Of a stretch of DNA of 55,246 bases, positions 804 through 31,006 are shown piece by piece (the stretch's first letter is position 1; each line of letters starts with the position of its first letter). The notes beneath the pieces were generated by a model, which worked only from the letters and a program-made list of their open reading frames with translations, was not told the origin of the DNA and did no database searches. This stretch comes from a virus, in the IMG/VR virus record IMGVR_UViG_3300045988_088672; one strand, written 5' to 3'. Position numbers and translations under genes: made by a program.

Positions 804-832
804 TTGACATTTCTATTTTTATGTGTTACAAT
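804..832 (+). promoter_or_regulatory. Early-class promoter cassette copy 1 (TTGACA-17-TGT-TACAAT)
   Basis: TTGACA 804-809, 17-bp spacer TTTCTATTTTTATGTGT, TACAAT 827-832 with extended -10 TG. The core is identical at 3537, 20222, 25693 and 30978. Confidence 0.75.
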
Positions 833-863
833 AAAAACATAATAAAACAAGGAGGACAAAGAT

Positions 864-1085
864 ATGGAAGGAAAGGTAATTATACATAAACAGAAAGAGC
901 CAAATAAACAAGGATTTTTATTTTACATGACCGGGACAAGAACGGTAATCACAAACTGGGATGAAGATGGAAATTATTACCCGGAAGGAAAAGAAGAAAC
1001 CGAAGAAGTAAGAAACAGATTTGAAACACTGGAAGAAGCTGTTTCCTACGCAAAAGAAAATAATTATTCATATATGACAATGTAA
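864..1085 (+). CDS. Hypothetical protein
   Basis: ORF track, 73 aa. AAGGAGG SD lies 8 nt upstream. Confidence 0.6.
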   Translation: MEGKVIIHKQKEPNKQGFLFYMTGTRTVITNWDEDGNYYPEGKEETEEVRNRFETLEEAVSYAKENNYSYMTM

Positions 1086-1103
1086 AGAGAGGAGATACAC
1101 AAT

Positions 1104-1277
1104 ATGAAGAATAAAAACGGTTATATAAAAATGGCACGAGAAGCAACAAACAGAATAAACGCTATGGAAGACAAAGTAGCAAAAGAATTATACGGATGTA
1201 CATGGGATGAATTAGATTATGACGATAAAGAAGTATGTACATATGAAGCGTATGATAGATTGAATGGAGGAAATTAG
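1104..1277 (+). CDS. Hypothetical small protein (57 aa, not in ORF track)
   Basis: Hand translation gives MKNKNGYIKMAREATNRINAMEDKVAKELYGCTWDELDYDDKEVCTYEAYDRLNGGN*. SD GAGAGGAGA lies at 1087-1095. The ORF fills an otherwise empty gap. Confidence 0.5.
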   Translation: MKNKNGYIKMAREATNRINAMEDKVAKELYGCTWDELDYDDKEVCTYEAYDRLNGGN

Positions 1278-1280
1278 CAT

Positions 1281-1427
1281 ATGACTATTAAAACTTGGAA
1301 AATATGGGGAAGTGATTTATCCCCAATCTATATAATAGGAAAAAATGTAGACGAAGTTCTGCATCAAGCAAGACTAATTAACGAAGGATATAATACAGTT
1401 CAATTATATAGCAAGGAGGAACTATAA
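1281..1427 (+). CDS. Hypothetical small protein (48 aa, not in ORF track)
   Basis: Hand translation gives MTIKTWKIWGSDLSPIYIIGKNVDEVLHQARLINEGYNTVQLYSKEEL*. SD GGAGGAAA is upstream. The stop abuts the ATG of the next gene. Confidence 0.5.
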   Translation: MTIKTWKIWGSDLSPIYIIGKNVDEVLHQARLINEGYNTVQLYSKEEL

Positions 1428-1428
1428 A

Positions 1429-1740
1429 ATGATACATTCAGTTACTTTACAACAGGAAATCAAAAAATGGTGGAGAAAATTAGATAAAGTTATGACAGTT
1501 GCAGAAAGTTTAGATGATATAAAAATAGGAGATTGTACATTTAGACCTTGGGGAGCTAAACATCCTTACAATATGAAAACTAAATGTACATCAACTTATT
1601 TAAGAACTTTTCAAAGTACGAAACCAGTTGAAAATACAAAAGGAGAAATCGTATATCCAATATTAGATGTATATATTGATATTTGTGAAGGAAGAAAATA
1701 CACATCTTATAAAAAAGTTAGATGTCATTGTTCTTGTTAA
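1429..1740 (+). CDS. Hypothetical protein
   Basis: ORF track, 103 aa. AAGGAGGA SD is upstream. Confidence 0.6.
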   Translation: MIHSVTLQQEIKKWWRKLDKVMTVAESLDDIKIGDCTFRPWGAKHPYNMKTKCTSTYLRTFQSTKPVENTKGEIVYPILDVYIDICEGRKYTSYKKVRCHCSC

Positions 1741-1757
1741 AAAGGAGGAATTAGTAA

Positions 1758-3473
1758 ATGATTAGAATAAGCATCGGAGAGCCTGATAAACTCTCCAATA
1801 ATATTTTAGTAAAAAAATCTGCATTTGTAAACTTCGACTATAACCCGGATATTATAAATTTTATAAAAAAGATGGGAACGAGGATATATAACCCGAATAA
1901 CCATACGTGGGAGATGCCTATAAATAATATCATATCCCTATGCAATAAATTTGAAAATGAAGAAATTCAAATATCCGGAATATATGAAGATTTGCACAAG
2001 CAGAAATTTGAGATTGATATTCCAAAAGACTTTGAATTTAAAACAAAGCCATTCAATCATCAGATTGATGGTGTACGGTTTGGTCTTAATAAGAAGAAGT
2101 TCCTGTTATGTGATGATCAAGGACTTGGAAAAACAAAACAGATTATAGACTTCGTTGGGTGCCTTGAAAAAACAGATACAATCAACAAAGTTCTTATCGT
2201 ATGTGGTGTAAACTCCTTAAAATATAACTGGCAGTCAGAAATTGAAACACATTCTAACGAAAAAGGGTGGGTGTTAGGAACAAGATTTAGAAAAACAACA
2301 GGTAAAGCATATGAGGGAAGTACAAAAGATAAAATTGATGACTTAAATAACTTACCAGATTGCAGATATATAATCACTAATATTGAAACACTCCGGGCAG
2401 GTTCAGAAAAGATTAGCAAAACAAAATATCATTTTCCTATTGCAGAGAAATTACAGGAATTATGCAAAGATGGAACAATATCAGTGATTGCATTTGATGA
2501 ATGTCACAAATCAAAAGAACCTACTTCTTTACAGAGTCGTGCCATGATAAATGTAACTGCAAAATATATGGTTGCTATGAGTGGGACACCACTTATGAAC
2601 AATCCACTTGATTTATATTTCCCTATGAAATGGTTGGGATATGAAAATCATAGTTTTTATCAATTCAAACAGCATTATTGTAACTTTGGCGGATGGGGAG
2701 GCTCACAGATAGTTGGATATAAGAATCTTGATGAAATCAGAGCAATGATGGACAACATTATGCTGAGAAGATTAAAAATGGAAGTTCTTGATCTTCCAGA
2801 AAAAATCAGAAAAATTGAATATGTGGATATGACACCGAAGCAGTCACAGATTTATAAAGAAGTTTATAATGGTGTCATGAATGAAGTTCATAAAATCAAG
2901 TTTTCCAATAATCCTCTTTCCATGATGATTAGATTAAGACAGACAACCGGATGGACAGGAATTATTTCAGAAAAAATACAGGAATCCGCTAAAATGGATA
3001 GAATGATTGAACTTGTTGAAGAAATCACACAGAGCGGGCAGAAGGCAATCATTTTTAGCAACTGGGAAAGTATGACGGAAGTTGCAAAAGAAAAACTTAA
3101 AGAATATAAACCAGCTTATATCACAGGTGCAACAAAGGCAGAAGAAAGAATGGTTGAAGTTGAAAGATTTCAAAATGATCCATCTTGCAAAGTTATCATT
3201 GGAACCATTGGTGCAATGGGAACTGGACTCACACTGACAGCTGCACAGAATGTTATATTTTTAGACGAACCTTGGAACAGAGCATTAAGAGATCAGGCAG
3301 AAGATAGAGCACATAGAATTGGAACAAAAGGAACAGTTAATATCACATTTCTTTGTTGTAAAAATACGATTGATGAACGTATTCATAACCTTGTTGAAAA
3401 GAAAGGACAGATCAGTGATGCATTAGTTGATGGAAAGATTAGTGTTGATGATATTAACTATCTTCTTTCTTAA
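1758..3473 (+). CDS. SNF2/Rad54-family helicase
   Basis: Motifs DDQGLGKT (Walker A), FDECHK (DExH) and GTGLTLT...DEPWN...QAEDRAHRIG (helicase C motifs V/VI) are typical of SNF2 ATPases. Confidence 0.85.
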   Translation: MIRISIGEPDKLSNNILVKKSAFVNFDYNPDIINFIKKMGTRIYNPNNHTWEMPINNIISLCNKFENEEIQISGIYEDLHKQKFEIDIPKDFEFKTKPFNHQIDGVRFGLNKKKFLLCDDQGLGKTKQIIDFVGCLEKTDTINKVLIVCGVNSLKYNWQSEIETHSNEKGWVLGTRFRKTTGKAYEGSTKDKIDDLNNLPDCRYIITNIETLRAGSEKISKTKYHFPIAEKLQELCKDGTISVIAFDECHKSKEPTSLQSRAMINVTAKYMVAMSGTPLMNNPLDLYFPMKWLGYENHSFYQFKQHYCNFGGWGGSQIVGYKNLDEIRAMMDNIMLRRLKMEVLDLPEKIRKIEYVDMTPKQSQIYKEVYNGVMNEVHKIKFSNNPLSMMIRLRQTTGWTGIISEKIQESAKMDRMIELVEEITQSGQKAIIFSNWESMTEVAKEKLKEYKPAYITGATKAEERMVEVERFQNDPSCKVIIGTIGAMGTGLTLTAAQNVIFLDEPWNRALRDQAEDRAHRIGTKGTVNITFLCCKNTIDERIHNLVEKKGQISDALVDGKISVDDINYLLS

Positions 3474-3479
3474 TACACA

Positions 3480-3515
3480 TTCCCACATCTTAATAGGGGT
3501 GGGAAATTTTTTTTT
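3480..3515 (+). terminator. Rho-independent terminator
   Basis: Stem TTCCCAC/GTGGGAA followed by a T10 run. Confidence 0.75.
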
Positions 3516-3536
3516 GAAAAAGTTTACATAAAAGTG

Positions 3537-3565
3537 TTGACATTTCTATTTTTATGTGTTACAAT
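3537..3565 (+). promoter_or_regulatory. Early-class promoter cassette copy 2
   Basis: TTGACATTTCTATTTTTATGTGTTACAAT is identical to the copy at 804. Confidence 0.75.
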
Positions 3566-3599
3566 AAAAACATAATAAAGAAAGGTAAAGGTGATTATT

Positions 3600-3908
3600 A
3601 TGTTAGAAAGAAATAAAAGCTATGAAATGAAAGAATGGTTTGCAAACAAATTTGCAAAAGAAAACGGATTTGATATGTGTAGTGGCTGGTTAGTAGCCAT
3701 TATGAAAGAAAGTGAAAAAGCAGTATACGCAATGGTTCAGATCTGCGGAGCAAGCAGAAAATGCACATGGATTCCAAAATCTTGTTTAGAATCTTATGAA
3801 GTCGGGAATGATGGTTTTATGAATCATTTTGAAACGACGTTTGAAGAAGATTATAACAAATGTGTTGAGATCTTTAAAGACCACTGCTTCATGTATGATT
3901 TGGTATAA
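3600..3908 (+). CDS. Hypothetical protein
   Basis: ORF track 3591..3908. ATG at 3600 is preferred because the SD-like AAAGGTGA leader lies upstream. Confidence 0.6.
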   Translation: MLERNKSYEMKEWFANKFAKENGFDMCSGWLVAIMKESEKAVYAMVQICGASRKCTWIPKSCLESYEVGNDGFMNHFETTFEEDYNKCVEIFKDHCFMYDLV

Positions 3909-3940: not shown

Positions 3941-4258
3941 TTGATAGAGAAATTTTCAACCGCCCGAGCGGCACAGATATTGGATGTTTCTACCAACACT
4001 CTGAAGCGTTGGTATAAGTGGTATCATTCCGATGATTACCAAAAACCTACAGGCTTAAAATTGCCGGAGCCTGAAATATCTGGAAATGGAACGATGTTCT
4101 TCACAACGGAACAAGTACAGGAACTTCATAAGTTTCAGACGGACCTCCGGACTATTTATAGAGGGGCTATGGCAGAATTTAATGCCGCATATCAGTGGGG
4201 AAAACGTGGAACAAAGATTATGAACATTGGAAAACAATTTAAGAAAGGAGAAAAATAA
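3941..4258 (+). CDS. MerR/excisionase-type HTH DNA-binding protein
   Basis: The N-terminus FSTARAAQILDVSTNTLKRWYKW is a classic MerR/HTH_17-like helix-turn-helix. TTG start lies 10 nt after AGGAGG. Confidence 0.55.
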   Translation: MIEKFSTARAAQILDVSTNTLKRWYKWYHSDDYQKPTGLKLPEPEISGNGTMFFTTEQVQELHKFQTDLRTIYRGAMAEFNAAYQWGKRGTKIMNIGKQFKKGEK

Positions 4259-5476: not shown

Positions 5477-5505
5477 TTGTAATCTAAAAAATCTTGTGTT
5501 ATAAT
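5477..5505 (+). promoter_or_regulatory. Putative promoter (TTGTAA-17-TGT-TATAAT)
   Basis: TTGTAA 5477-5482, 17-bp spacer, TATAAT 5500-5505 preceded by TGT (extended -10). Confidence 0.55.
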
Positions 5506-6521: not shown

Positions 6522-6881
6522 ATGGCATATAAAGGAGCATATAAGGCTAAAGATGAGAAGTATCTGAAAGAATTGGTTTTGGGGTGTATAACTGATGAAC
6601 CTACAAGACTCAGTTCAGCTAAAATAGCAAATTACCTTGGCTTAAGTTCAAGGGACGTTCGCCTGCTAGTGCAAAAGTTAAGGGATGACGGATACCCAAT
6701 ATGTGCTACACCAGAACAAGGGTACTGGATGGCAAGAACAAGCTGGGATATGAATGATACAATGAGTAAGCTAAAATCACATATCGAAAACAGTACAGAT
6801 ACTTATAACTCGCTTGTTTATTGTCAAAATGTTTTAAAGCGAAAGGAAGGAAACAATGAATATACAGAATTGCTGGTATAA
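6522..6881 (+). CDS. Winged-helix DNA-binding protein
   Basis: SSAKIANYLGLSSRDVRLLVQKLRDDGYPI resembles an HTH_11-like wHTH. Confidence 0.45.
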   Translation: MAYKGAYKAKDEKYLKELVLGCITDEPTRLSSAKIANYLGLSSRDVRLLVQKLRDDGYPICATPEQGYWMARTSWDMNDTMSKLKSHIENSTDTYNSLVYCQNVLKRKEGNNEYTELLV

Positions 6882-9084: not shown

Positions 9085-10128
9085 TTGATAAAACTACAAG
9101 ATACAATTATACAAACCGATACACAGTCTGTCTTGGATATGCTTAAATTTGATTTGGCACAGCATGGGGTTAATAGGTTTCATATTTTTAGAAACAATGG
9201 CGAAAATGTGCAAACGAATTGTCCTTTCCACAAGAACGGACAAGAACGAAAGCCGTCTTTCGGTGTAAATGGAGAAATTGATAAATGCCATTGCTTTGCT
9301 TGTGGCTGGGCTGGTACAATAGAGGAAATGATATCCGAATTATACGGATATAAAGATGAAGGAAAGTTTGGAAAACGGTGGCTTATAAAAAGATTTAATA
9401 CAGTAGAAATTGAAACAAGACCAAATATAATGGAGGGGTTTAATGGACGAGAAATCAATAAGCAAATATATACAAGAGAACCCGGAAAAATGGAGACGGT
9501 ATTTGTCAAAGATGGAGGAACACAACGAACAAAAAGCAAAGAGATTAAAGGAGGAACTGGAACAGTTACAGGAGAAAACGGAATCACAGAAGAAGAATTA
9601 GATAAATATAGATATATTCATCCTTATATGTATGAAAGAGGATTAACCGATGAAATTATAGAAAGGTTTGATATAGGATATGACAAAGAGCGAAAAGAGA
9701 TTACTTTCCCGGTCAAAGACATTGAAGGAAGATTTTTATTCATTGCAGGAAGAAGTGTCGAACGCAAATTTTTCAGACTCCCGAAAGATACGGATAAACC
9801 GTTGTATCAAGGATATAGATTTACGGATGGAAGTTATAAATACTGTTATATCACAGAATCTTTTTTGAATTGCTTGACTTGCTGGAAATATAATAAGCCG
9901 TCTATGGCTATGATAGGCACCGGAAATCAAAAACAATATGAAATATTGAATAAGTTGCCTGTGCGTGAATATATTCTTGCATTTGACCCGGACGAAGCTG
10001 GAAGAAAAGCAATAGAAAGATTTAGAAAGAATGTACATGGAAAGATTATAAAAGAACTTGTATATGCAGATAATCGTGATATAAATGACTTGCAAGAAGA
10101 ATTTTTGAAGTGCAAAATAATTTTTTAA
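9085..10128 (+). CDS. dnaG: DnaG-type DNA primase (CHC2 zinc finger + TOPRIM)
   Basis: CPFHKNGQERKPSFGVN...CHCFACGWAG is a CHC2 finger. AFDPDEAGRKA is the TOPRIM acidic motif. TTG start. Confidence 0.85.
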   Translation: MIKLQDTIIQTDTQSVLDMLKFDLAQHGVNRFHIFRNNGENVQTNCPFHKNGQERKPSFGVNGEIDKCHCFACGWAGTIEEMISELYGYKDEGKFGKRWLIKRFNTVEIETRPNIMEGFNGREINKQIYTREPGKMETVFVKDGGTQRTKSKEIKGGTGTVTGENGITEEELDKYRYIHPYMYERGLTDEIIERFDIGYDKERKEITFPVKDIEGRFLFIAGRSVERKFFRLPKDTDKPLYQGYRFTDGSYKYCYITESFLNCLTCWKYNKPSMAMIGTGNQKQYEILNKLPVREYILAFDPDEAGRKAIERFRKNVHGKIIKELVYADNRDINDLQEEFLKCKIIF

Positions 10129-10145
10129 AAATTTCAAAAAACCTA

Positions 10146-10174
10146 TTGACAACCCTATTTTTATGTGTTACAAT
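10146..10174 (+). promoter_or_regulatory. Early-class promoter cassette copy 3
   Basis: TTGACA 10146-10151, 17-bp spacer, TACAAT 10169-10174 with TGT. The upstream TTTCAAAAAACCTA is shared with the other copies. Confidence 0.75.
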
Positions 10175-10218
10175 ATAATTGTAAATAAGAAATACATAAA
10201 ACAAGGAGGATACATATT

Positions 10219-21442: not shown

Positions 21443-21444
21443 TT

Positions 21445-21702: not shown

Positions 21703-21711
21703 TGCGAATAC

Positions 21712-21894
21712 ATGGTTCTTTCTAAATTGAAAGAAATAAAAGCTATTGCCAAGGAGTATGATCCTAATACTAAATATTTAGCTGCGTTTGTGTATAATGA
21801 CCAGATATTTTTTAATAATAACTATTGGGAAGACGATGTACCAAAGTTGGATATTAAGTTTTTTGATGACGAAGAAAAGGAGCAAAAAAGATGA
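21712..21894 (+). CDS. Hypothetical protein
   Basis: ORF track, 60 aa. Confidence 0.45.
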   Translation: MVLSKLKEIKAIAKEYDPNTKYLAAFVYNDQIFFNNNYWEDDVPKLDIKFFDDEEKEQKR

Positions 21895-22223
21895 GTACAA
21901 GATATTTTTCAGACAAACAAGAAAAACATATAGCAAAGGTCACTGGAGGTAAAGTGCAGAGCAACTCCGGTGGAACAAAGTTTGGCGGTGGGGATGTTCA
22001 TACAGATAAATTCTTTATTGAAGCAAAGACACCAACAGAAGAGAAGCAGTCATTCTCGATAAAAAGAGATTGGCTGACAAAGGTAAAAGAGCAGGCTTTT
22101 GAACAAGGAAAAGAACGCTGGGCTCTGGCGTTTACCTTTGACCCAGATAAGCAAGAAAACTTCTATGTTATTTCAGAAAACGAATTTTTAGAATATTTAG
22201 TATACAAGGAGATGAAAGTATAA
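21891..22223 (+). CDS. Putative PD-(D/E)xK nuclease / Holliday-junction resolvase-like protein
   Basis: SNSGGTKFGGGDVHTDKFFIEAKT carries a D...E-x-K core typical of small phage resolvase-type nucleases. Confidence 0.4.
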   Translation: MSTRYFSDKQEKHIAKVTGGKVQSNSGGTKFGGGDVHTDKFFIEAKTPTEEKQSFSIKRDWLTKVKEQAFEQGKERWALAFTFDPDKQENFYVISENEFLEYLVYKEMKV

Positions 22224-22447
22224 TGGAATGTCCATATTGTTCAAGCAATCTATCAAAAGTTATAGATTCAAGAAAAGTAGAGATGAACGTATTCCGCACT
22301 AGAGTATGCACGAAATGCGATTCAAAATTTTATATGGAAGAAGTGGTTATTACAGAAGAAGAAGCAAGATTTTATATGGCAGCGATAAAAAGAAAATATA
22401 GAAAAGAAAGGAAAGATTATAATGGCAAAAACAGCATTAGCAATTAA
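22223..22447 (+). CDS. nrdR: NrdR-like zinc-ribbon protein lacking the ATP-cone
   Basis: MECPYCSSNLSKVIDSRKV...RTRVCTKCDSKFYMEE matches the NrdR N-terminus (M-CP-C...KVIDSR...R-R-C--C---F---E). At 74 aa it has no ATP-cone. Confidence 0.6.
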   Translation: MECPYCSSNLSKVIDSRKVEMNVFRTRVCTKCDSKFYMEEVVITEEEARFYMAAIKRKYRKERKDYNGKNSISN

Positions 22448-23450
22448 GTATCGACCGACTGATTTTTCTTCATTAACTGAACAGTCAGCAATTAAGGATA
22501 TTTTGGAAAATCAGATTAAAACAAAAACATTTCAGCACGGGTATTTGTTCACAGGACCGGCAGGAACAGGAAAGACAACCTCTGCAAGAATCTTCGCCAG
22601 CATGATAAATGATGGGAAGGGAAATCCTATTGAAGTGGATGCCGCAAGTAATAGCGGTGTGGATAACATCAGACAGATTATAGAAGATGCTAAAAGAAAA
22701 CCACTCGATGCAGAATATAAGATATTCATAGTGGATGAATGTCATTCATTATCAAATGGAGCGTGGCAAGCATTATTAAAGACATTGGAAGAACCACCAA
22801 AATTTACGATTTTCATTTTTTGCACAACGGATCCGCAGAAAATTCCTAATACGATTTTATCAAGAGTGCAAAGATACAATTTTCAGAAAATAAGTAATGA
22901 AGGTATCGTGGATAGGTTAATCTCCATTATTAAAAAGGAGAATGATGCTTCCAATATTCATTACGATCTTGATGCCGTTGAGTATATAGCTAAGGTATCA
23001 AATGGTGGAATGAGAGATGCTATCACATTGATGGATAAGTGCTTATCCTTGTCGGATGTTTTAACATTGGAAAATGTATTAAAAACTATTGGAAGCGAAG
23101 ATTATAATACATTCTTTGATTTTTTAGATCGGTTGTGTAACAAAGGAAAAATGAGTATAACAACAATCGAAAATGTCTATAACTGCGGTAAAGATGTAAA
23201 ACAGTTTATGAAAGACTTTGCCAAATTCATTTTAGAAGTTGAAAAATATCTAATTTATGAATCAACTGATTATATCAATATACCAAATACAAAAGAAAAT
23301 ATTGATAAGCTATCAGAGTTTAGACCTTTGTCCTCCGAAGTTTATAATGTAATGGACTTTGTAGTTTCTTTAAATAATCAGATTAAATGGGAAAATGATG
23401 CTAAGACATTGATTGAATTATCTATCTTGATTTATTGTGGAAAGGAATGA
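22422..23450 (+). CDS. dnaX: Clamp-loader ATPase, DNA polymerase III gamma/tau (DnaX)-like
   Basis: KYRPTDFSSL, GPAGTGKTT (Walker A), FIVDECHSLS (Walker B / DExx), LKTLEEPP and SRVQRYNF (SRC-like sensor). Confidence 0.85.
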   Translation: MAKTALAIKYRPTDFSSLTEQSAIKDILENQIKTKTFQHGYLFTGPAGTGKTTSARIFASMINDGKGNPIEVDAASNSGVDNIRQIIEDAKRKPLDAEYKIFIVDECHSLSNGAWQALLKTLEEPPKFTIFIFCTTDPQKIPNTILSRVQRYNFQKISNEGIVDRLISIIKKENDASNIHYDLDAVEYIAKVSNGGMRDAITLMDKCLSLSDVLTLENVLKTIGSEDYNTFFDFLDRLCNKGKMSITTIENVYNCGKDVKQFMKDFAKFILEVEKYLIYESTDYINIPNTKENIDKLSEFRPLSSEVYNVMDFVVSLNNQIKWENDAKTLIELSILIYCGKE

Positions 23451-23454
23451 AAAT

Positions 23455-24246
23455 ATGATTGGGCAGAAAAATAATATAAATACGCTTATGAAATGGCGTT
23501 GTAATAAGTCAGTACCAAGATTTATCATTCTTTCTGGTAGTGAAGGCTCTGGTAGATTGACACTTGCGAAAGTAATTATAAGAATGATAAACGCAAAAGG
23601 AATTATAATGGGGAATAGCATTTCAGAAGTTAGGGAAACAATAGAAAATGCTTACACAATTACCGAGCCAACTTGTTATATTTTCAGAAATGCCGATGAT
23701 ATGTCAGCCCCAGCAAAAAATGCACTTCTTAAAGTAGTTGAGGAACCGCCGAATAACGCCTATTTTATTATGACTGTGCAGAATATAGATAATATGCTGG
23801 GTACTATTAGAAGCCGGGGCACAGTTATTAAAATGGAGCCCTATACTATTCGAGAACTACAAAAAGTGACAATGGACGAAACTCTTTTAAAGTATTGTAC
23901 AAATATCGGTTTGCTGAATACGCCGAAGGAAAAGATTTTGCAAGCAGAGAAATGTGTGGATGAGGTACTTGAAGCATTCATGTCTAAAAGTGGTACTAAA
24001 TTGTTGAAAGCCACTACACAGTTAAAGGCTAAAAAGACTGACGAAGATAAGGTAGATTGCTTGATTTTTATGCGGATATTTGAACAGAAATTATATGATT
24101 CTTATGGGTTCTGTTCTATTTCCTTATGTATCATAAAAGATATCTGTTCATGTGGACAGGAATTGCAAAGGAGTAGTATCAATAAAAAAGCCAGCATTGA
24201 ATCAATGCTAATTAAGATTATGGAGGAATTAAAAAATGACATTTGA
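23455..24246 (+). CDS. holB: Clamp-loader delta-prime-like subunit
   Basis: Degenerate P-loop GSEGSGRLT, LLKVVEEPP and RSRG sensor motif. ATG 23455 is preferred over GTG 23437. Confidence 0.65.
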   Translation: MIGQKNNINTLMKWRCNKSVPRFIILSGSEGSGRLTLAKVIIRMINAKGIIMGNSISEVRETIENAYTITEPTCYIFRNADDMSAPAKNALLKVVEEPPNNAYFIMTVQNIDNMLGTIRSRGTVIKMEPYTIRELQKVTMDETLLKYCTNIGLLNTPKEKILQAEKCVDEVLEAFMSKSGTKLLKATTQLKAKKTDEDKVDCLIFMRIFEQKLYDSYGFCSISLCIIKDICSCGQELQRSSINKKASIESMLIKIMEELKNDI

Positions 24247-24397
24247 TGAAATTATGGTAATGCTATTACAATCTTGTAATAAGAGATTCAAGGAGACTAC
24301 AAGTTTAAGTAAAAAGCTATTGGATTGTGCTACACAAATCTATATTGCGGAAATGGGGGAGAAGAATAATGCAGAAATTTCCGAGAAGATGGAATAA
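24236..24397 (+). CDS. Hypothetical small protein (53 aa, not in ORF track)
   Basis: Hand translation gives MTFDEIMVMLLQSCNKRFKETTSLSKKLLDCATQIYIAEMGEKNNAEISEKME*. GGAGG lies 9 nt upstream. Confidence 0.4.
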   Translation: MTFDEIMVMLLQSCNKRFKETTSLSKKLLDCATQIYIAEMGEKNNAEISEKME

Positions 24398-24722
24398 ATT
24401 GGATTGTGTTAATTTTCTTCAAAGGAAGATTATCATAAATTCAATAGCTTACTACGAATTGGATAATCCAGTTCTTTCCGATAAACAATATGATGAACTG
24501 TGCCGACAGTTAGTATCAATGCAGGAAGATATTGACTTGAATTTGACGCAGTATGGGTACTGTATGAATGGATTTGATGGTAGTACCGGATTTGACCTTT
24601 ACACAAAATTAAATGACCCTGATAAAGATTATTTGATGAAATTGGCAGTGCTTGGACTCGGGAAAGTTAAAGTGAAAGAAGAAAAAGTAGTGAAGAAAAA
24701 TCGAAAAGGAGGACTATTTTAA
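24369..24722 (+). CDS. Hypothetical protein with an N-terminal motif resembling NAD-ligase domain Ia
   Basis: ORF track 24327..24722. ATG 24369 is preferred because it follows GGGGGAG. IAYYELDNPVLSDKQYDELCRQL resembles the LigA Ia pattern (YY..D.P..SD..YD.L). Weak inference. Confidence 0.45.
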   Translation: MQKFPRRWNKLDCVNFLQRKIIINSIAYYELDNPVLSDKQYDELCRQLVSMQEDIDLNLTQYGYCMNGFDGSTGFDLYTKLNDPDKDYLMKLAVLGLGKVKVKEEKVVKKNRKGGLF

Positions 24723-25678
24723 TGGAACTTGTAGAATTAATGAAAAGTATATCATACAATGCTATTCCGCATTTTCTTATTCTTTATGGCGAGGAACAAA
24801 CCATTCTGGATATGTACATACAAAAGATTGTACAAGCGACAGGAGCAAAGAAATTTAATTTTGAGTCTGTTTCGTTAGCAGTTAAGCACTCCGGAAAGAA
24901 AAGTCTTGATAAGTCAACAAAACTGTATACGATTATTGACGATAATGCGTTTATAAAAGCAGAGGATAATTGGGGGCAAGTAAAGGATTCAATGAATAAG
25001 AACTACCTTATTATTCGATATAATTCTTTGGATAAACGTTCCGCATTTTTCAAAAGAAATAAAGAAAATATTGTGGAATTTTCTCATCTTACCCATGATG
25101 TTTTATCACAGTATATAAGCCGAGATTTGCCGGACTTGTGTGAAGATAATGCGAATAAATTGGTGGAATATTGCAATTATGATTATGGTAGAATACTGAT
25201 GGAAATTGATAAAATCAAACAATGGCAGGAACATTATACTGATAATGAAGGTACACCTAAAACTGATTCTGTCTTTAAGTTATTAGATAAACAAGGATTA
25301 TTCTATAAAGAAATAGGGGATATCACCTTTGAATTGACAGATGCAGTCTTGGGTGGATACCCGGAAACAGCCATGCAGAAGTTAGATGAAGCAAAGTGGA
25401 AAGGTGAGCCTGCCATGATGATTGCTTCTATACTATACAATGGATTCCGGAATCTTTTGGCTTATCAAGGTTTAGGAAGTAATAAGAAAGGTGCAGTAGA
25501 AAGAACAGGACTTTCTAAAGGCGATATATGGAGATGTAGTAAGAATGTTGGTGGCTATAGTATTGAAGAAGTAAAAAGAAATATGCTTATTTGTCAGAAT
25601 ATAGAATCCGGGATAAAGACTGGAATTGTAGACGAAGACATTGCATTGGAATATTTGGTACTATCTTGTTTAAAATAA
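24722..25678 (+). CDS. holA: Clamp-loader delta (HolA)-like subunit
   Basis: The 318-aa size, an N-terminus IPHFLILYGEEQTILDMY like HolA (Y.lyGeE.yL), and the position after the DnaX-like and delta-prime-like genes. Confidence 0.5.
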   Translation: MELVELMKSISYNAIPHFLILYGEEQTILDMYIQKIVQATGAKKFNFESVSLAVKHSGKKSLDKSTKLYTIIDDNAFIKAEDNWGQVKDSMNKNYLIIRYNSLDKRSAFFKRNKENIVEFSHLTHDVLSQYISRDLPDLCEDNANKLVEYCNYDYGRILMEIDKIKQWQEHYTDNEGTPKTDSVFKLLDKQGLFYKEIGDITFELTDAVLGGYPETAMQKLDEAKWKGEPAMMIASILYNGFRNLLAYQGLGSNKKGAVERTGLSKGDIWRCSKNVGGYSIEEVKRNMLICQNIESGIKTGIVDEDIALEYLVLSCLK

Positions 25679-25692
25679 TTTCAAAAAACCTA

Positions 25693-25721
25693 TTGACATT
25701 TCTATTTTTATGTGTTACAAT
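25693..25721 (+). promoter_or_regulatory. Early-class promoter cassette copy 7
   Basis: Exact TTGACATTTCTATTTTTATGTGTTACAAT preceded by TTTCAAAAAACCTA. Confidence 0.75.
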
Positions 25722-25766
25722 ATAATCAAAGTTAAGAAATAAAAATATATTAGGAGGTAATTACAT

Positions 25767-26018
25767 ATGAAAGGATTTGATATTTTTTATAAATTAAAAG
25801 AGGCATACGAGGTAAGCACAAAAAACAATAATTTTTTTGCTGCCTTGTTGAACTCCATTACATGGGATGAAAAATATGAAGCTGATAATGAATTATATTT
25901 TGTGAAGGGTGACTTCACATTCATGACACCATCTTTAGATCCATTTAGAATGCCTTGGTCACCATCAGCAGTATTAGAGGACAGAAATGTACTTGAATTT
26001 TTTGGAGGTGCGATATGA
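25767..26018 (+). CDS. Hypothetical protein
   Basis: ORF track, 83 aa. AGGAGG SD is upstream. Confidence 0.6.
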   Translation: MKGFDIFYKLKEAYEVSTKNNNFFAALLNSITWDEKYEADNELYFVKGDFTFMTPSLDPFRMPWSPSAVLEDRNVLEFFGGAI

Positions 26019-26812
26019 GCAGAAGATTATTAAACTTAATCAATAACAATCAGCCAGAACTTCCGGCTAATAAGAAGTTTTTAGCGGATGTTATGAGTTG
26101 TATTGAGAGAATGGAGCAAGAAGGAAGAAGAAAAGGAAGTAATTATTATAAACCTTCTTCTTTGCATTGTATGAGAAATATGTATTTCACTCGTACAAAA
26201 GCACCACAAGACCCGGAAGTATCGGAGTACAATTCAACAGGAATGGCAGATACTGGAACTGCACGGCATGAGGCATTACAGAATGCTTTATTGAATATGA
26301 AAGGCATGGGGTACGATTGGAAGTATTTAGATGTTGCTGAATATGTAAAGGAAAAACAGAAATTCGGTAAATGTAAATCCTTGATTGTGAAAGGAACACA
26401 GGGGGCAGAAACACATCTTATAGATACCGCATTGAATCTATCTTTTAGATGCGACGGAATTATAAGAAGAATTTCAACAAACGAAGATTATTTATGGGAG
26501 TTCAAGAATGTTGTTTCTTTCAAATATAACCAACTTGATAATCACTGTTTAGAACAACATCATAATCAAGTAATCTGCTATTGTACTGTCTTGGATTTAG
26601 ATAAGGCATTTGTGATGTACGAAAATAGAGATATATGCACACTTGAAGTGCCTGAGATTTTCCATGTGACAAAGGATATGAAAGATTGGCTTGTTGGATA
26701 TATAAGCGAGTGTGAGGGTTATGTGGAAAGAATGATTGCACCGCCAAAAACGGAAGATACAAAGAACTGTAGGTGGTGTAGATACAAAAATATATGCAGA
26801 AAGGTTGGATAA
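26015..26812 (+). CDS. Cas4/RecB-like PD-(D/E)xK exonuclease with 4-Cys cluster
   Basis: One N-terminal Cys (SLHCMR) plus C-terminal CRWCRYKNIC, with a DGIIRR...EFK core. This is the Cas4 / DUF83 architecture. Confidence 0.7.
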   Translation: MSRRLLNLINNNQPELPANKKFLADVMSCIERMEQEGRRKGSNYYKPSSLHCMRNMYFTRTKAPQDPEVSEYNSTGMADTGTARHEALQNALLNMKGMGYDWKYLDVAEYVKEKQKFGKCKSLIVKGTQGAETHLIDTALNLSFRCDGIIRRISTNEDYLWEFKNVVSFKYNQLDNHCLEQHHNQVICYCTVLDLDKAFVMYENRDICTLEVPEIFHVTKDMKDWLVGYISECEGYVERMIAPPKTEDTKNCRWCRYKNICRKVG

Positions 26813-26847
26813 AAATGAGTAATTATGTTCTATTTGATGTGTAAGAC

Positions 26848-27066
26848 ATGGACGTAGATTCAGAATTAAATAATCTTGTAGAAATAAGAGGCTCTTACTG
26901 TCATGAACCATACTTAATAATGTCAAAGATGACGTTTAAGCTCATTAAAATGCTGTCCAAAGGATATAATGCTAAAGATAATTCATGGGTATATAGCGGA
27001 GACTCGAGCTGGGTACCTTATGAATTTCAAATTGCAATTGATAAAAGAATACCTTTTGGGAGGTGA
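26848..27066 (+). CDS. Hypothetical protein
   Basis: ORF track, 72 aa. SD is weak. Confidence 0.4.
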   Translation: MDVDSELNNLVEIRGSYCHEPYLIMSKMTFKLIKMLSKGYNAKDNSWVYSGDSSWVPYEFQIAIDKRIPFGR

Positions 27067-27073
27067 AAGTGAA

Positions 27074-27451
27074 ATGACATTAGACGATTGTAAGAGGATT
27101 CATCATGATATGTGGAATTATATTGCAGATACTGAAGATCGTACTCATCATTCATTGAGTAGGTCATATTTAAAGGATGATTTTTGTGCAAGAAATCATT
27201 TATATTTCAGCAATAATTGTGCTTTATGTGAGTACGCTTTAGACCAATATAATGCACACCATGATGAATGTGTGGCTTTCAGTGTGTCGCATGATGTCTG
27301 TACATTTTGTCCGGCTTTATGGGGGACAGAGGGAGATCAGTACGGTTATTATTGTGAACATGATGTTGATGGATCTGCTGAAAGAATTGATTGGAGGTAT
27401 ACCAAAGCCGATGATATAAGAGACATTAAATGGAAAGACGAGGTGGAGTAA
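27074..27451 (+). CDS. Hypothetical Cys/His-rich protein
   Basis: ORF track 26969..27451. ATG 27074 is preferred because it follows GGGAGGTG. Contains CALCEY...HHDEC...CTFCP. Confidence 0.55.
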   Translation: MTLDDCKRIHHDMWNYIADTEDRTHHSLSRSYLKDDFCARNHLYFSNNCALCEYALDQYNAHHDECVAFSVSHDVCTFCPALWGTEGDQYGYYCEHDVDGSAERIDWRYTKADDIRDIKWKDEVE

Positions 27452-27909
27452 TGATATATATAGGAATTGACCCAGGAAAGAATGGCGGAATAGGTATATT
27501 AAAGTTAAGAAATAATCAACTTGTCAGTGCGTCTGCATATGTTTTTGATGAAACTATGCTAATAAATATGTTGTTTGAATTAAGGTGTGGTTCTGATGTG
27601 ATGTGTACTTTAGAACACGTTCACGCAATGCCAAAGCAGGGTGTGTCAAGTACATTCAATTTTGGAATGAATTTTGGTTTCATTCAAGGTGTATTAAAAG
27701 CATATGGAATTCCCTATGAACTTGTTACACCACAGAAATGGAAGAAAGAATTTTCTTGCACATCTGACAAAAATACATCCATTGAAGTATGCAAGAGATT
27801 ATTTCCTTTTGTAAATTTGAAGGCTACAGAACGATGCAGAAAAGACCATGACGGAATGGCAGAGGCATTATTGATTGCAGAGTATGGAAGGAGGCATTAT
27901 AATGGTTAA
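27451..27909 (+). CDS. ruvC: RuvC-like Holliday-junction resolvase
   Basis: MIYIGIDPGKNGGIG matches the RuvC/RNase H-fold N-terminal IGIDPG motif. ATG 27451 overlaps the preceding stop (TAATG). Confidence 0.7.
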   Translation: MIYIGIDPGKNGGIGILKLRNNQLVSASAYVFDETMLINMLFELRCGSDVMCTLEHVHAMPKQGVSSTFNFGMNFGFIQGVLKAYGIPYELVTPQKWKKEFSCTSDKNTSIEVCKRLFPFVNLKATERCRKDHDGMAEALLIAEYGRRHYNG

Positions 27910-28081
27910 AATTGAGAGCAGATGTAGGAATTGTGAAAGCATGAATAAATTGGTTAAAGTCATGAATGATTCAGTATCTAAATTAGGTGTCGCCGAGCCT
28001 TTTCATGATGCTCCATTCTCAATACATAGAATAGATTGTGATTATTTTTCAGCTGAAAAATCTATAATTAAAGGATGGTGA
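27902..28081 (+). CDS. Hypothetical small protein
   Basis: ORF track 27875..28081. ATG 27902 is preferred because it follows AGGAGG. Confidence 0.5.
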   Translation: MVKIESRCRNCESMNKLVKVMNDSVSKLGVAEPFHDAPFSIHRIDCDYFSAEKSIIKGW

Positions 28082-28088
28082 TTATAAA

Positions 28089-28781
28089 ATGAGTAGACGT
28101 TTCAAGATAAAAAATTGTTGTGAGAATTGCGTGTATGCCACGAACTACACTGGGTACGATGATTTTGATTGTAGCCAGTTAGACCACATGATGCGTGCGG
28201 AGAAGTTTGACTGTGATTATTTTAAACCTAAAAAAATGTCAAAAACGAACTGCGAAAATGATATGAACCAGCCTAATACTAAGCATATAATGGCTAAAGT
28301 AGATACTATGAGTGATACAATCAAAGAAATATCAGATAAACTTATAGAAAAATATTGTGATTCACTTGATGTAGAAATGGCGGTTATCAGATTAGAGCTG
28401 AAAGAAAATAACTCTTTAACCGATTATACACTAGAGAAGCACATATTGGATTTAGCAAATATTCTTTATTTCACAGGTTCGGCACAAGAAGATCTTGGTA
28501 TTAAAGAAGATACTTGCAAAGCTATCAGACAGGAAGTATATTCAAAAGCAAGAGAACAAGCAACGGGAAAAACAGTTGCAGATAAAACGGCACAAGCAGA
28601 TCTTATAGCACAAGCAGAAACAATGACTCTTGTTATATATTCAAGAGCATACAAGAAAGTGAAATTGCGAATGGATGCCGGATATGAGATGCTTAATAGC
28701 TTGAAAAAAGTAATGAATAAGCGTATTACAGAAATGGAACTATCAAATAGTAGGTATATCAATAAAGGTGAGGTGAATTAG
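28089..28781 (+). CDS. Hypothetical protein (Cys-rich N-terminus, helical C-terminal half)
   Basis: ORF track, 230 aa. Confidence 0.6.
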   Translation: MSRRFKIKNCCENCVYATNYTGYDDFDCSQLDHMMRAEKFDCDYFKPKKMSKTNCENDMNQPNTKHIMAKVDTMSDTIKEISDKLIEKYCDSLDVEMAVIRLELKENNSLTDYTLEKHILDLANILYFTGSAQEDLGIKEDTCKAIRQEVYSKAREQATGKTVADKTAQADLIAQAETMTLVIYSRAYKKVKLRMDAGYEMLNSLKKVMNKRITEMELSNSRYINKGEVN

Positions 28782-28782
28782 A

Positions 28783-28947
28783 ATGACACAGGAAGATTAT
28801 CAAAGGGCTAAAGTAATCATGCAGGATTTAGAAGCTTTAACTTACTGTAATATTCCTTCTTTTGCTTCAGAAGAATTAAAGAAAGAATTTAGTGATTGGA
28901 TAAAGAAAAAGAAAGCAAACTTACAAAATGAATTTGATAATTTATAG
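28783..28947 (+). CDS. Hypothetical small protein (54 aa, not in ORF track)
   Basis: Hand translation gives MTQEDYQRAKVIMQDLEALTYCNIPSFASEELKKEFSDWIKKKKANLQNEFDNL*. SD GGTGAGGTG is upstream. Confidence 0.5.
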   Translation: MTQEDYQRAKVIMQDLEALTYCNIPSFASEELKKEFSDWIKKKKANLQNEFDNL

Positions 28948-28956
28948 GAGGTAGTA

Positions 28957-29172
28957 ATGATTGACTGTAATATTTGCAAGCATAAAGAAGATTATTGTAT
29001 AGGATGCAAGCATGGAGAGTTGTTCGAGAGAAAAAATGTGTCAGAACCTAAAAAAATATCAGTTAGTAATGGAAATGAATATTGCGGACATTGTGGTTAT
29101 TTGTGTGACTACGCAAGAGGATATAAAAAGTTTTATTGCATTAGGTGTGGGGGACTTAATTTAAGAAGTTGA
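28957..29172 (+). CDS. Zinc-finger-like Cys-rich small protein
   Basis: CNICKH...CIGCKH...CGHCGYLC...CIRCG, i.e. four CxxC pairs in 71 aa. Confidence 0.55.
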   Translation: MIDCNICKHKEDYCIGCKHGELFERKNVSEPKKISVSNGNEYCGHCGYLCDYARGYKKFYCIRCGGLNLRS

Positions 29173-29193
29173 AAGAATTGAGAGGTGGAAAAG

Positions 29194-29610
29194 ATGAACG
29201 ATAGCAACTCAAGAAATAACGAGCCTTGTTGCAGATGTGATAGCAAAGTTTCAGAAAATGATGATACAAAAAACAAAGTTACATCTCTGGAAATTATCGT
29301 AAGGATGATAGACAACAATCCATATTACGAAATCAAGTACAAAAAAGTCGGCGAAGATTATTACCATGTAGGTTACAGTTCATTCAATATTGATAATGTA
29401 TTGAAATGGCGTGATGAGTGTTTTGAACTTGTGGATATGAAAGTGACAAATGTCTACAGGATAAGGAATATGTCGGATGAACAGTTGGCAGAGTTTTTGG
29501 CATATAACGCATCCTGTGAAGAATGCTATGTTAAAAAGGATGATTCTTGTTGCTATCCAGACGGACCGTGCAAACAAAAACATCTTGAATGGCTTCAATC
29601 AGAAGAATAA
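29194..29610 (+). CDS. Hypothetical Cys-rich protein
   Basis: ORF track 29185..29610. ATG 29194 is preferred because it follows GAGAGGTGG. Confidence 0.55.
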   Translation: MNDSNSRNNEPCCRCDSKVSENDDTKNKVTSLEIIVRMIDNNPYYEIKYKKVGEDYYHVGYSSFNIDNVLKWRDECFELVDMKVTNVYRIRNMSDEQLAEFLAYNASCEECYVKKDDSCCYPDGPCKQKHLEWLQSEE

Positions 29611-29623
29611 GGAGGAAAACAGA

Positions 29624-29902
29624 ATGAGACTTATTGACTCAGACAGACTACTTGCTTATTTGAAAGAAGAAAATGTCGTACCAATTTGTATTCAAAATTT
29701 AACAAAGAAAAACAAACAAATTATAAAGTTTGAAAATATGATATATGAGCAACCTACTGCCTATGATATTGATGGTGTTGTAGAGCAGTTGAATACGGAC
29801 TCTTCTATAGAACTGTATGGAAGTGGCAATAGCAATAATTATCTTATTCCCGTTGAAAGGGCAATCAACATAGTAAAGGAAGGAGGTATTATAAATGAGT
29901 AA
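29624..29902 (+). CDS. Hypothetical protein
   Basis: ORF track 29477..29902. ATG 29624 is preferred because it follows AAGGAGGA. Confidence 0.55.
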   Translation: MRLIDSDRLLAYLKEENVVPICIQNLTKKNKQIIKFENMIYEQPTAYDIDGVVEQLNTDSSIELYGSGNSNNYLIPVERAINIVKEGGIINE

Positions 29903-30914
29903 TCTTGATTTAATTATAAAAGATTTGAATAAGAAAATGAAGGTAGGAAATATTCAGTTAGGCGTAGATTTCCAAGAAGTACAAAAGATTCCTTTTTCAT
30001 CGTGCAGATTAAATTATATGACATATGGTGGAATCCCAGTTGGAAGAATTGCAGAATTTTATGGGGCAGATGGAAGTGGAAAGACAACTACTGCTATTGA
30101 TGTAGCATGGAATGCACAAAGAATGTTTCCAGATAAAAAAGTGCTATTTGTAGATATTGAACATACTTTTGATTATTGCTGGTCTACTAAACTAGGATTG
30201 AATTGTGATGATATAATCTATCTTGACCCTGATAGCATGGGAGCAGAGGAAGTTTTTAATATGATGATTGAGCTTATAGATAGTGGAGAAATAAGCCTAT
30301 GTATATTAGATTCAATCGGTGCTATGGTATCTATGCAAGCAAACGAAAAACAGATAGGCGAAAGAACATATGGCGGAGTAAGTATGGCATTAACTGAATT
30401 TAGCAAGAAAATAACTCCAGTTCTTGCAAGAACACAAACTGCTTTTATAGGAATAAATCAAGTCCGAGATGATATGAATAGCATGTATGGCGGAACAACT
30501 ACGACAGGCGGAAGAGCATGGCGGCATAGTTGCAGTACAAGGCTTGAGTTTAGAAAAGGAAATTATATTGATGATAAGGATAATAAACTTTCGAGAGCTT
30601 GTGAGAATCCTGCCGGAAATATAGTCAATGTGGCACTAGTGAAATCTAAAGTATGTAGACCGGACAGAAAAGTAGGCTTCTACACATTAAAATATCTTGA
30701 AGGAATTGACTATGTATCGGATGCAGTTGATGTAGCTATCAAAATGGGATTAGTTATGCAGGGAGGAGCATGGTTTTCTTTAGTTGATATTGAAACAGGA
30801 GAGATTCTTAATAAATTCCAAGGAAAATCAAAGTTAGTTGACTATCTAAAGGAAAATGATAACTATACAGATTTTTACTCAAAATTGGATAAATTATTAA
30901 ACGAGCAATCTTAA
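29895..30914 (+). CDS. recA: RecA-family recombinase
   Basis: GGIPVGRIAEFYGADGSGKTTTAI (Walker A context as in RecA), ILDSIGAM (Walker B) and FIGINQVR. Confidence 0.8.
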   Translation: MSNLDLIIKDLNKKMKVGNIQLGVDFQEVQKIPFSSCRLNYMTYGGIPVGRIAEFYGADGSGKTTTAIDVAWNAQRMFPDKKVLFVDIEHTFDYCWSTKLGLNCDDIIYLDPDSMGAEEVFNMMIELIDSGEISLCILDSIGAMVSMQANEKQIGERTYGGVSMALTEFSKKITPVLARTQTAFIGINQVRDDMNSMYGGTTTTGGRAWRHSCSTRLEFRKGNYIDDKDNKLSRACENPAGNIVNVALVKSKVCRPDRKVGFYTLKYLEGIDYVSDAVDVAIKMGLVMQGGAWFSLVDIETGEILNKFQGKSKLVDYLKENDNYTDFYSKLDKLLNEQS

Positions 30915-30924
30915 TTATCAACAA

Positions 30925-30956
30925 GTTATCCACATTAAATTGTGGATAACTTTTTT
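30925..30956 (+). terminator. Rho-independent terminator whose stem is a pair of inverted perfect DnaA boxes
   Basis: GTTATCCACA-TTAAAT-TGTGGATAAC followed by T6. TTATCCACA is the DnaA-box consensus. TTATCAACA lies at 30915-30923. Confidence 0.8.
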
Positions 30957-30977
30957 GAAAAATTTTTAAAAAACCTA

Positions 30978-31006
30978 TTGACATTTCTATTTTTATGTGT
31001 TACAAT
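30978..31006 (+). promoter_or_regulatory. Early-class promoter cassette copy 8
   Basis: Exact TTGACATTTCTATTTTTATGTGTTACAAT. The leader through the ATGACA start matches 10184-10224. Confidence 0.75.

Follow-up and report, generated by a model that had tools for sequence, protein, structure and literature searches.

The first 31 kb of IMGVR_UViG_3300045988_088672, an IMG/VR virus record of 55,246 nucleotides (nt) referred to here as the window, carries eight nearly identical intergenic sequences, each combining a promoter with a leader, and the question that these sequences raise is what keeps them alike. The initial annotation, made from the letters alone, had left open whether their likeness reflects selection on a factor-binding site or an RNA element, or the spread of cassettes by recombination. 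Having compared the window with related phages and with host chromosomes, we consider it likely that these elements, in a virulent phage of Clostridia, function as composite regulatory cassettes, fired by the sigma-A of the host, kept alike by selection together with concerted evolution, and serving as joints for the exchange of gene blocks. The architecture of the cassettes, the pattern of their conservation across the phage family, their homogenisation within each genome and the coincidence of rearrangement breakpoints with them are all shown by the sequences.

The 29-nt core, TTGACATTTCTATTTTTATGTGTTACAAT, occurs on the + strand exactly at positions 804, 3537, 20222, 25693 and 30978 and with three mismatches each at 10146 and 14820, the mismatches all lying within the first eight bases of the spacer. 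These are the exact copies and spacer variants listed in the initial annotation, and its half copy restricted to the -10 was likewise recovered, as an eighth occurrence of the 13-mer TATGTGTTACAAT at 16667-16679. This remnant (cassette 5) lacks a -35 (AAAATA at that place) because the stop codon of the upstream gene occupies the spot; its orthologues keep one, TTTACA in relative G004 and TTGAC[A/T] in G001. By chance the core is expected 0.00 times (100 dinucleotide-preserving shuffles). A nhmmer profile built from the seven full copies found no ninth copy on either strand of the 55 kb, late region included, and all eight sites are on the + strand within the first 31 kb. A complete cassette consists, in this order, of an intrinsic terminator (present in four of the eight), an A-tract, the promoter TTGACA-17-TGTG-T-TACAAT, an unstructured, A-rich leader of 25-45 nt, a perfect Shine-Dalgarno (SD) sequence and an ATG. 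The copies form two subtypes: cassettes 1 and 2 (subtype A) have TACATAAAA upstream and AAAAACATAATAAA downstream of the promoter, and cassettes 3, 4, 6, 7 and 8 have TTTCAAAAAACCTA-type and ATAATCAAAGTTAAGAAATA-type sequences at the corresponding places. The upstream box TTTCAAAAAACCTA is exact only in cassettes 3, 6 and 7, with one mismatch in cassette 8 and a 1-nt deletion variant in cassette 4; the leader ATAATCAAAGTTAAGAAATA is exact in cassettes 6, 7 and 8 and has one mismatch in cassette 4. The shared flanks attributed to most copies are thus real, but they extend to only four or five of the eight, cassettes 1 and 2 being of another subtype. Cassettes 6, 7 and 8 have exact blocks of 59-63 nt in common, and the 38-nt identity reported between cassettes 3 and 8 into the first two codons is exact, running through ATGACA. 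SD/ATG modules common to several copies reach codon 2 of genes that are otherwise unrelated.

Relatives were sought by a relaxed pattern scan of IMG/VR, which returned contigs of 31-54 kb, mostly from one metagenome, and ten of these were taken whole (G001-G010). They show 65-97% identity to the window in the terminase large subunit (TerL) and separate into two clades, clade I with the window, G001, G002, G004, G009 and G010, and clade II with G003 and G005-G008. The family further includes a contig binned into a metagenome-assembled genome (MAG) of Clostridia and the 85-kb contig L017. The latter has several cassettes of its own, and the idea that L017 is an unrelated phage into which a cassette had been transferred was therefore discarded.

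Conservation was assessed on 57 distinct copies from 11 genomes (the window and its ten relatives), anchored on the -10. Positions -20 to -15 and -13 to -6 are identical in 57/57 copies; at position -14, 38 copies have G and 19 have A, T occupies position -22 in 53 of the 57, and the -35, TTGAC(A/T), is near-invariant. Together these positions define a family-wide invariant block of 17 nt from -22 to -6, T(T/C)TTATGT(G/A)TTACAATA. Further upstream there is an A-tract at -45 to -40 (A in 43-47 of the 57 copies at -42 to -40) followed by a C at -38. Positions -29 to -23 hold almost no information, and the leader is only loosely conserved; it is rich in A and in purines generally, and TAAGAA or TAAAGA recurs in it at about +7 to +12. 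This conservation is not a product of the search model, because a scan of the ten relatives for TTGACA-N17-TANNNT, which admits any spacer and 16 different -10 hexamers, also gives a majority of the cassette type (39 of 57 hits, with about 12 hits expected by chance from a reversed-pattern control). Alignment of the relatives thus reveals conservation beyond the hexamers, in the 17-nt block and in the A-tract at -45 to -40, but the block lies wholly within zones contacted by RNA polymerase. The TGTG at -17 to -14 (T-17 G-16 T-15 G-14) is an extended -10 motif (numbering of PMC6212719), and -22 to -18 is the Z-element zone, which is read by the beta' zipper in the Escherichia coli, Thermus and Bacillus subtilis enzymes (PMC3173786). 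To judge from these alignments, all of the family-wide invariant positions fall in polymerase contact zones, and purifying selection would act on the polymerase-contacting positions, namely the -35 hexamer and -22 to -6.

The remaining identity has a different distribution. When the cassettes were tabulated by orthologous position (same upstream gene) against genome, each genome was found to have its own 'house' spacer and leader: TTTCTAT with ATAATCAAAGTT in the window, AATACAT with ATAATTACAAATT in G001, and ATTACCT or TTTTTCT with ATAATTGTAAAT in G002. Mean distances in the 7-nt spacer are smallest between paralogues of one genome (0.375) and larger between orthologues (0.531) and unrelated copies (0.547); with genome labels shuffled within orthologous positions, none of 5000 permutations reached the observed value (p<0.0002), and the same test gave p = 0.002 for the leader and p = 0.0004 for the upstream 20 nt. 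Variants also jump between positions and genomes. For instance, the house type of the window is found at position C in G001 and G010, and an ACCCT spacer that stands at position C in the window stands at position G in G001. Since -29 to -23 and much of the leader are alike within a genome and different between genomes, these parts are evolving in concert, and most of the identity beyond the invariant block probably reflects gene conversion rather than a factor site or a folded RNA. The identity over 60-95 nt is consequently, for the most part, not that of a selected factor site or RNA element, the first 7-8 spacer bases and much of the leader varying freely between genomes; the alternative put forward in the initial annotation, spread or homogenisation by recombination and use in module shuffling, is supported by the comparison with relatives.

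This last role is apparent from the gene order. When 660-700 nt on each side of every relative's cassette were placed on the window, many cassettes proved to join segments that are not adjacent in the window. With P for a cassette, the order clamp-P-[exonuclease...UvsX]-P-[ArdC-N-like...clamp loaders]-P-late is found in G002, G003, G004, G005 and G006, and G007-G009 are consistent with it; in the window and G001, units 6 (20222-25692) and 7 (25693-30977) stand in the opposite order, clamp-P-U6-P-U7-P. The outgroup clade has the majority order, so the order of the window and G001 is derived. All three breakpoints of the swap lie in cassettes (6, 7 and 8), an outcome with an estimated chance of about 0.002 if breakpoints were placed at random among some 62 gene junctions, eight of them with cassettes. 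The swap could have arisen by excision of a circle consisting of a cassette and its unit and re-entry at another cassette or, alternatively, by unequal crossing-over followed by deletions. Other changes likewise involve cassettes. Only the window has unit 4, between cassettes 4 and 5, in place of which G001, G002 and G004 have other genes; in G002, gene 21074 has become the first gene after a cassette. Gene 20808-21077, whose 89-residue product has an ArdC N-terminal (single-stranded DNA-binding, anti-restriction) domain, is the first gene after a cassette in most relatives and stands behind two different cassettes in G004 (at 11386 and 39828; L057-L059). In the window an insert of about 520 nt (20290-20790), which is absent from G001 and comprises the small open reading frames (ORFs) 20300-20488 and 20510-20627 and about 150 nt of non-coding sequence, parts cassette 6 from this gene and has left an orphan SD/ATG module at 20781-20820 on the + strand (AAAACAAGGAGGATACATACTATGA) in front of it.

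Several features argue for unusually strong promoters. In a consensus promoter scan of 1-20 kb the cassettes rank first, second, fourth and fifth, which supports their original description as promoter/leader elements of the sigma-A type: the four full cassettes in this interval score 11/12 and each has TG before the -10, which the only other site with that score (7193) lacks. TGTG is present at -17 to -14 in 8/8 copies of the window. The combination of a UP-like A-tract, a perfect -35, a 17-bp spacer, a TGTG extended -10 and TACAAT is what would be expected of a very strong sigma-A promoter, with a predicted start about 7 nt after TACAAT; promoter activity and the activity of the terminators are likewise predicted from the architecture. 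Each of these putative terminators is a hairpin followed by a T-run and lies 19-21 nt upstream of cassette 1, 2, 6 or 8, in agreement with the 15-30 bp first reported (folding energies -16.6, -12.2, -14.6 and -16.5 kcal/mol; z = -4.8, -2.0, -4.7 and -5.6, respectively). Folding of the upstream sequence of cassettes 3, 4 and 7 gave no hairpin. The proposed division into insulated units accordingly stands for the four boundaries with terminators but not for the other four of the eight. At most orthologous sites the relatives have a hairpin and T-run, with differing stem sequences and always upstream of the A-tract, and G002, G003, G004, G006, G007 and G008, unlike the window, have a terminator at the position of cassette 7. 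The leaders do not fold, their minimum free energy (0 to -1.3 kcal/mol) being no improvement on that of shuffled sequences; a structured leader or riboswitch was ruled out on this ground, and the notion of a folded RNA leader element under selection found no support. Three further sites in the window, 5477-5505, 33624-33652 and 39278-39306, have a weak -35 (TTGTAA or TTTACA) and TATAAT; the sequence is TGTGT-TATAAT at 5477 and 33624 and TTGTG-TATAAT at 39278. They appear to constitute a second promoter class, which has the TGTG motif in common with the cassettes.

The same motif is used in host chromosomes. When 185,579 species genomes were scanned, it turned up more than 120 times, chiefly in Clostridia and in many cases before riboswitches, T-boxes and tRNAs. 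In Clostridia chromosomes TTGACW-N9-TTATGTRTTACAAT (W, A or T) lies 2-5 nt upstream of the 5' ends that Rfam assigns to T-box leaders and to one lysine and one thiamine pyrophosphate (TPP) riboswitch, and 21-33 nt upstream of tRNA genes. This placement indicates that such sequences serve the host lineage as promoters and start transcription where expected. The number of hits is, by a rough estimate, close to expectation from the huge pool of real promoters, and we therefore keep them only as evidence of functional promoters. Two side observations came from these scans. In several host genomes (L138 688-1238, from Ruminococcoides intestinihominis; L142, L151, L155 and L162), TTATGTATTACAAT makes up the left arm of the perfect palindrome TTATGTATTAC-AAT-GTAATACATAA, which overlaps the -10 before a gene pair for a ribbon-helix-helix antitoxin and a RelE/ParE toxin and is, from this location, likely a toxin-antitoxin operator of those hosts. 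Another phage rich in consensus promoters is G015 (L005; IMG/VR 3300026549_000037), of 169 kb and thus of jumbo size, in which TTGACW-N17-TANNNT occurs 45 times on one strand and 6 times on the other, compared with 2 and 4 for the control.

Some observations weigh against our interpretation. When the whole genomes of three cultured Oscillospiraceae and the MAG binned with a relative were scanned, their promoters proved to have mostly TATAAT and arbitrary spacers, so that the invariance of C-10, A-6 and TTTTA (-22 to -18) in the cassettes is not explained by known sigma-A rules; for the same reason we rejected the idea that the block is invariant simply because it is the promoter consensus of the host. 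This invariance could reflect an additional factor; it may be due either to such a factor or to fine tuning of an already maximal promoter. The relatives come from few metagenomes and from two or three clades, and the 57 copies are therefore not independent samples. Finally, gene conversion is deduced from patterns, and recent duplication together with exchange between phages could give similar ones.

An additional factor is the subject of one rival explanation, in which the block from -22 to -6 (TYTTATGTRTTACAATA) also serves as an operator: a protein of the host or of the phage, such as one of the helix-turn-helix (HTH) proteins encoded at 3941-4258 and 6522-6881, would bind across every -10 and switch all early units off, or on, together. 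It is compatible with sigma-A promoters homogenised by recombination, and we hold it to be unlikely. An operator would account for C-10, A-6 and TTTTA never varying, and it fits a block that is invariant in 57/57 copies beside a spacer that varies freely, in a lineage whose own promoters have mostly TATAAT and arbitrary spacers. The non-cassette promoters of the phage also use TATAAT, so that TACAAT marks a promoter class; the A variant of the block holds a 9-nt palindrome, TGTA-T-TACA, and the two HTH proteins are kept across both clades. However, the G variant, carried by all copies in the window, has no dyad symmetry, RNA polymerase is known to contact the zones in which all the invariant positions fall (PMC3173786, PMC6212719), searches of the proteins of the window found no repressor-like family, and the same 14-nt block seems to be an ordinary promoter in host chromosomes free of phage. 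Control might instead be exerted on the RNA: the pentad UACAU, at about +15 and between SD and AUG, would make cassette transcripts targets of the phage's own MazF, which has no antitoxin and which, as it accumulates, would cut the early leaders and stop early translation as the late genes turn on. The pentad (TACAT in DNA) is present in 5/8 leaders of the window and in 24/37 leaders of clade I, against about 0.06 per leader expected from base composition, and in 0/22 of clade II; MazF homologues are likewise restricted to clade I (the window, G002 and G004), none having been found in three complete clade II genomes. In the late region (coding strand; 33696-55246 in the window) the ratio of observed to expected TACAT is 0.61-0.77 in clade I compared with 0.86-1.10 in clade II, and TACAT between SD and AUG is confined to cassette-type starts and the sigma gene. 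Nevertheless, all this is in effect a single phylogenetic contrast, most of the pentads belong to copies of the same repeated module so that their counts are not independent, the late-gene depletion is weak (p = 0.03-0.15 per genome), cleavage at UACAU by this MazF is a presumption, and in cassettes 1 and 2 the pentad lies upstream of the -35, outside their own transcripts. The link between MazF and UACAU is suggestive, and as an account of the leaders, also compatible with the preferred one, it strikes us as doubtful.

The two ideas can be combined into a timing device with two layers, in which -22 to -6 is a shared operator and the UACAU leaders are cut by MazF, which the last cassette would supply along with the late sigma. 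A single cassette design would thus first launch the early programme and afterwards erase it; the probability that both layers operate is, in our estimation, low. It is very improbable that the cassettes are promoters for the phage sigma factor (31585-32106) instead of host sigma-A. The window does encode a sigma-70 family protein with regions 2 and 4, but its gene lies behind cassette 8 and cannot start the cascade, and complete clade II genomes keep the cassettes with no detectable sigma homologue; on these two counts dependence on the phage sigma was rejected. Besides, the motif is to all appearances a textbook sigma-A promoter, used as such in phage-free host chromosomes. Hardly credible, finally, is the proposal that the near-identity and the swapped unit order stem from short-read assembly across repeats, or from chance in AT-rich sequence. 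Contigs of relatives often end inside cassettes, so the repeats do disturb assembly, but the motif occurred in 0/100 shuffles, and more than ten independent contigs contain cassettes. Each of the two unit orders, moreover, is found in contigs whose cassettes have only short exact repeats (22 nt in G001; 8-20 nt in G003, G004 and G006), and because these repeats do not exceed 8-22 nt, neither order is an assembly artefact. The contigs that end in a cassette include G001 (both ends), G007 (3' end) and G009 (5' end), and this frequency indicates that the repeats break short-read assemblies.

According to the interpretation that we favor, host-fired promoter cassettes shaped by selection and concerted evolution, host RNA polymerase would fire all cassettes straight after infection, each giving maximal transcription and translation of one block of early or middle genes; the last block, adjoining the late genes, would deliver the sigma factor and MazF. 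Across the phage family the -35 hexamer and -22 to -6 would be kept by purifying selection, and within each genome the other positions would be homogenised by homologous recombination or gene conversion, presumably by the phage's own UvsX-like recombinase, exonuclease and single-stranded DNA-binding protein (SSB). The homology among them turns the cassettes into joints, and it is here that blocks of genes are exchanged or replaced, duplicated or permuted.

Of the systems already described, the promoter-early stem-loop (PeSL) cassettes of T4-type phages come closest: these are repeated units of an AT-tract, a sigma-70 promoter, a stem-loop and SD/ATG that are found at indel junctions and through which modules are shuffled (Arbiol et al. 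2010, PMC2839356; Comeau et al. 2014, PMC4122927). The cassettes described here are an analogue and not a homologue of PeSLs. In both systems an early promoter for the primary sigma of the host is repeated in one orientation (here seven full copies and one remnant, all on the + strand), an AT-rich tract precedes the -35, an SD and start codon close the cassette, and copies lie at the junctions of insertions, deletions and replacements, recombination between them shuffling modules. However, the phage lineage and the host phylum are unrelated and there is no sequence homology; the hairpin, absent from half of the copies, invariably precedes the A-tract and never lies within the promoter; there are 7-8 copies as opposed to about 50; the cassettes bracket essential replisome modules, whereas PeSLs are found mainly in ORFan-rich hyperplastic regions; and the present cassettes show both permutation of whole modules and homogenisation specific to each genome. 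In T4 and T5, too, conservation of the early promoters reportedly extends well past the hexamers, to an A-rich block upstream, the spacer, an extended -10 and the initial transcribed region, and is taken as optimisation for the host polymerase; these promoters differ from the cassettes in serving phages of Gram-negative hosts and in the positions conserved, and we know of no description of a shared translation start module or of concerted evolution among them. The stoperators of cluster A mycobacteriophages are repeated operator sites for a cognate repressor encoded by the phage and are not themselves promoters, whereas the repeated sites in the window are, by all indications, complete promoters in themselves. 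Division of an early region into sigma-A promoter/terminator units is ordinary for lytic siphoviruses of Firmicutes such as Bacillus phage SPP1, which has five early sigma-A promoters (PE1-PE5) bracketed by rho-independent terminators (PMC6316719). Like the present phage, SPP1, as portrayed there, is a lytic siphovirus of a Firmicute with a contiguous early region cut into polycistronic units that contain replication genes and morons; its early promoters vary in strength, however, and the portions of that source dealing with them describe neither near-identical repeats nor cassette-mediated permutation (PMC6316719). In the halovirus HF2, two classes of intergenic repeats of 29-58 bp are stated to carry promoters (PMC8707807), but this is an archaeal virus with archaeal promoters.

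If our interpretation is correct, early promoters of virulent phages are evolutionary units as well as regulatory signals, of which the cassettes would be a clean example from a Gram-positive host, and the PeSL idea, which concerns T4-type phages in Gram-negative bacteria, would apply also to an uncultured phage family of the Clostridia. The comparison separates what would be kept by selection (the -35 hexamer and -22 to -6) from what would be kept by gene conversion (all else), and thus advises caution wherever repeated intergenic motifs of a single genome are taken as evidence of function. On the practical side, the cassettes are candidate strong and compact promoter and ribosome-site parts for low-GC Clostridia, and they explain why assemblies of these phages break, or may be mis-joined, at these places.

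The individual cassettes, all on the + strand, are arranged as follows. Cassette 1 (749-866) consists of a terminator hairpin with T-run at 749-782, the TACATAAAA box, the promoter at 804-832, a leader with AAGGAGG and an ATG at 864, and heads a unit of four small ORFs and a superfamily 2 (SF2) helicase gene (1758-3473). Cassette 2 (3480-3605), also of subtype A, has its terminator at 3480-3505 with a T9 run, the promoter at 3537-3565, the SD AAAGGTGA and an ATG at 3603; its unit encodes the HTH proteins, a DnaD-like initiator, a DnaC-like loader, DnaB and primase. Cassette 3 (10119-10221) has no terminator; the A-tract box is at 10132-10145, the promoter, with the spacer variant ACCCTATT, at 10146-10174 and the ATG at 10219, and the leader and translation start module are common with cassette 8. 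Behind it lie a 90-codon ORF, tRNA-Gln, tRNA-Met and the genes for SSB and DNA polymerase A. Cassette 4 (14793-14894), again with no terminator, has the promoter at 14820-14848 (spacer variant TCTATACT) and an ATG at 14892, and is followed by two ORFs of no assigned function and a glucosyltransferase-like gene. The 3' end of this last gene (15806-16657) has replaced the -35 and upstream part of cassette 5 (16658-16713), of which the invariant block -22 to -6 (16658-16680) and the leader/SD are left; the genes downstream are those of a helicase (16711), a methyltransferase and the sliding clamp. Cassette 6 (20169-20302) comprises a terminator with T-run at 20169-20195, an A-tract box, the promoter at 20222-20250 and an ATG at 20300; small ORFs, the ArdC-N-like gene and the clamp-loader genes form its unit. 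In cassette 7 (25666-25769), which has no terminator, the promoter is at 25693-25721 and the ATG at 25767, and the unit runs from a Cas4-like exonuclease through further genes up to a UvsX/RecA-like recombinase. Cassette 8 (30923-31053) has a terminator with T-run at 30923-30952, the promoter at 30978-31006 and an ATG at 31051; it precedes the last early unit, composed of a 172-codon ORF, the sigma factor gene (31585-32106), the mazF gene (32103-32468) and a DUF6011 gene.

Nearly all long ORFs of the window are on the + strand, and the phage is an uncultured, virulent one from gut or rumen, infecting a low-GC member of the Clostridia and having its own replisome and a siphovirus-like gene set. 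Megablast of 20 kb of the window gave no DNA-level match among 50,697 phage records, and relatives there are recognizable only at the protein level; the nearest isolates are the Clostridium phages vB_CtyS-FA88 and phiCTP1 (47% identity in the polymerase), and Streptococcus phage Dp-1 is also among them. The units headed by cassettes encode a large part of the replication machinery (SF2 helicase, DnaD-like initiator, DnaC-like loader, DnaB, primase, SSB and DNA polymerase A) and, in addition, a glucosyltransferase-like protein, a helicase, a methyltransferase, the sliding clamp, clamp loaders, the Cas4-like exonuclease and the UvsX-like recombinase. Behind cassette 8, the small sigma factor (sigma-70 family, regions 2 and 4) is followed by MazF (PemK/MazF domain), and the terminase gene (34349-35614) lies in the late region, beyond the last cassette. 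Family searches of the proteins of the window found no repressor or integrase family, only the two small HTH proteins, of which that at 3941-4258 is a weak match to HTH_23 and that at 6522-6881 matches HTH_11 above the cut-off; kept in both clades, they are the sole candidate early regulators seen. Unit 3 contains a non-coding gap of 814 nt with genes for tRNA-Gln (UUG) at 10879-10952 and tRNA-Met (CAU) at 11100-11174, and cassette 3 would therefore drive the synthesis of tRNA as well. Sequences resembling tRNA are found at the same place in G009.

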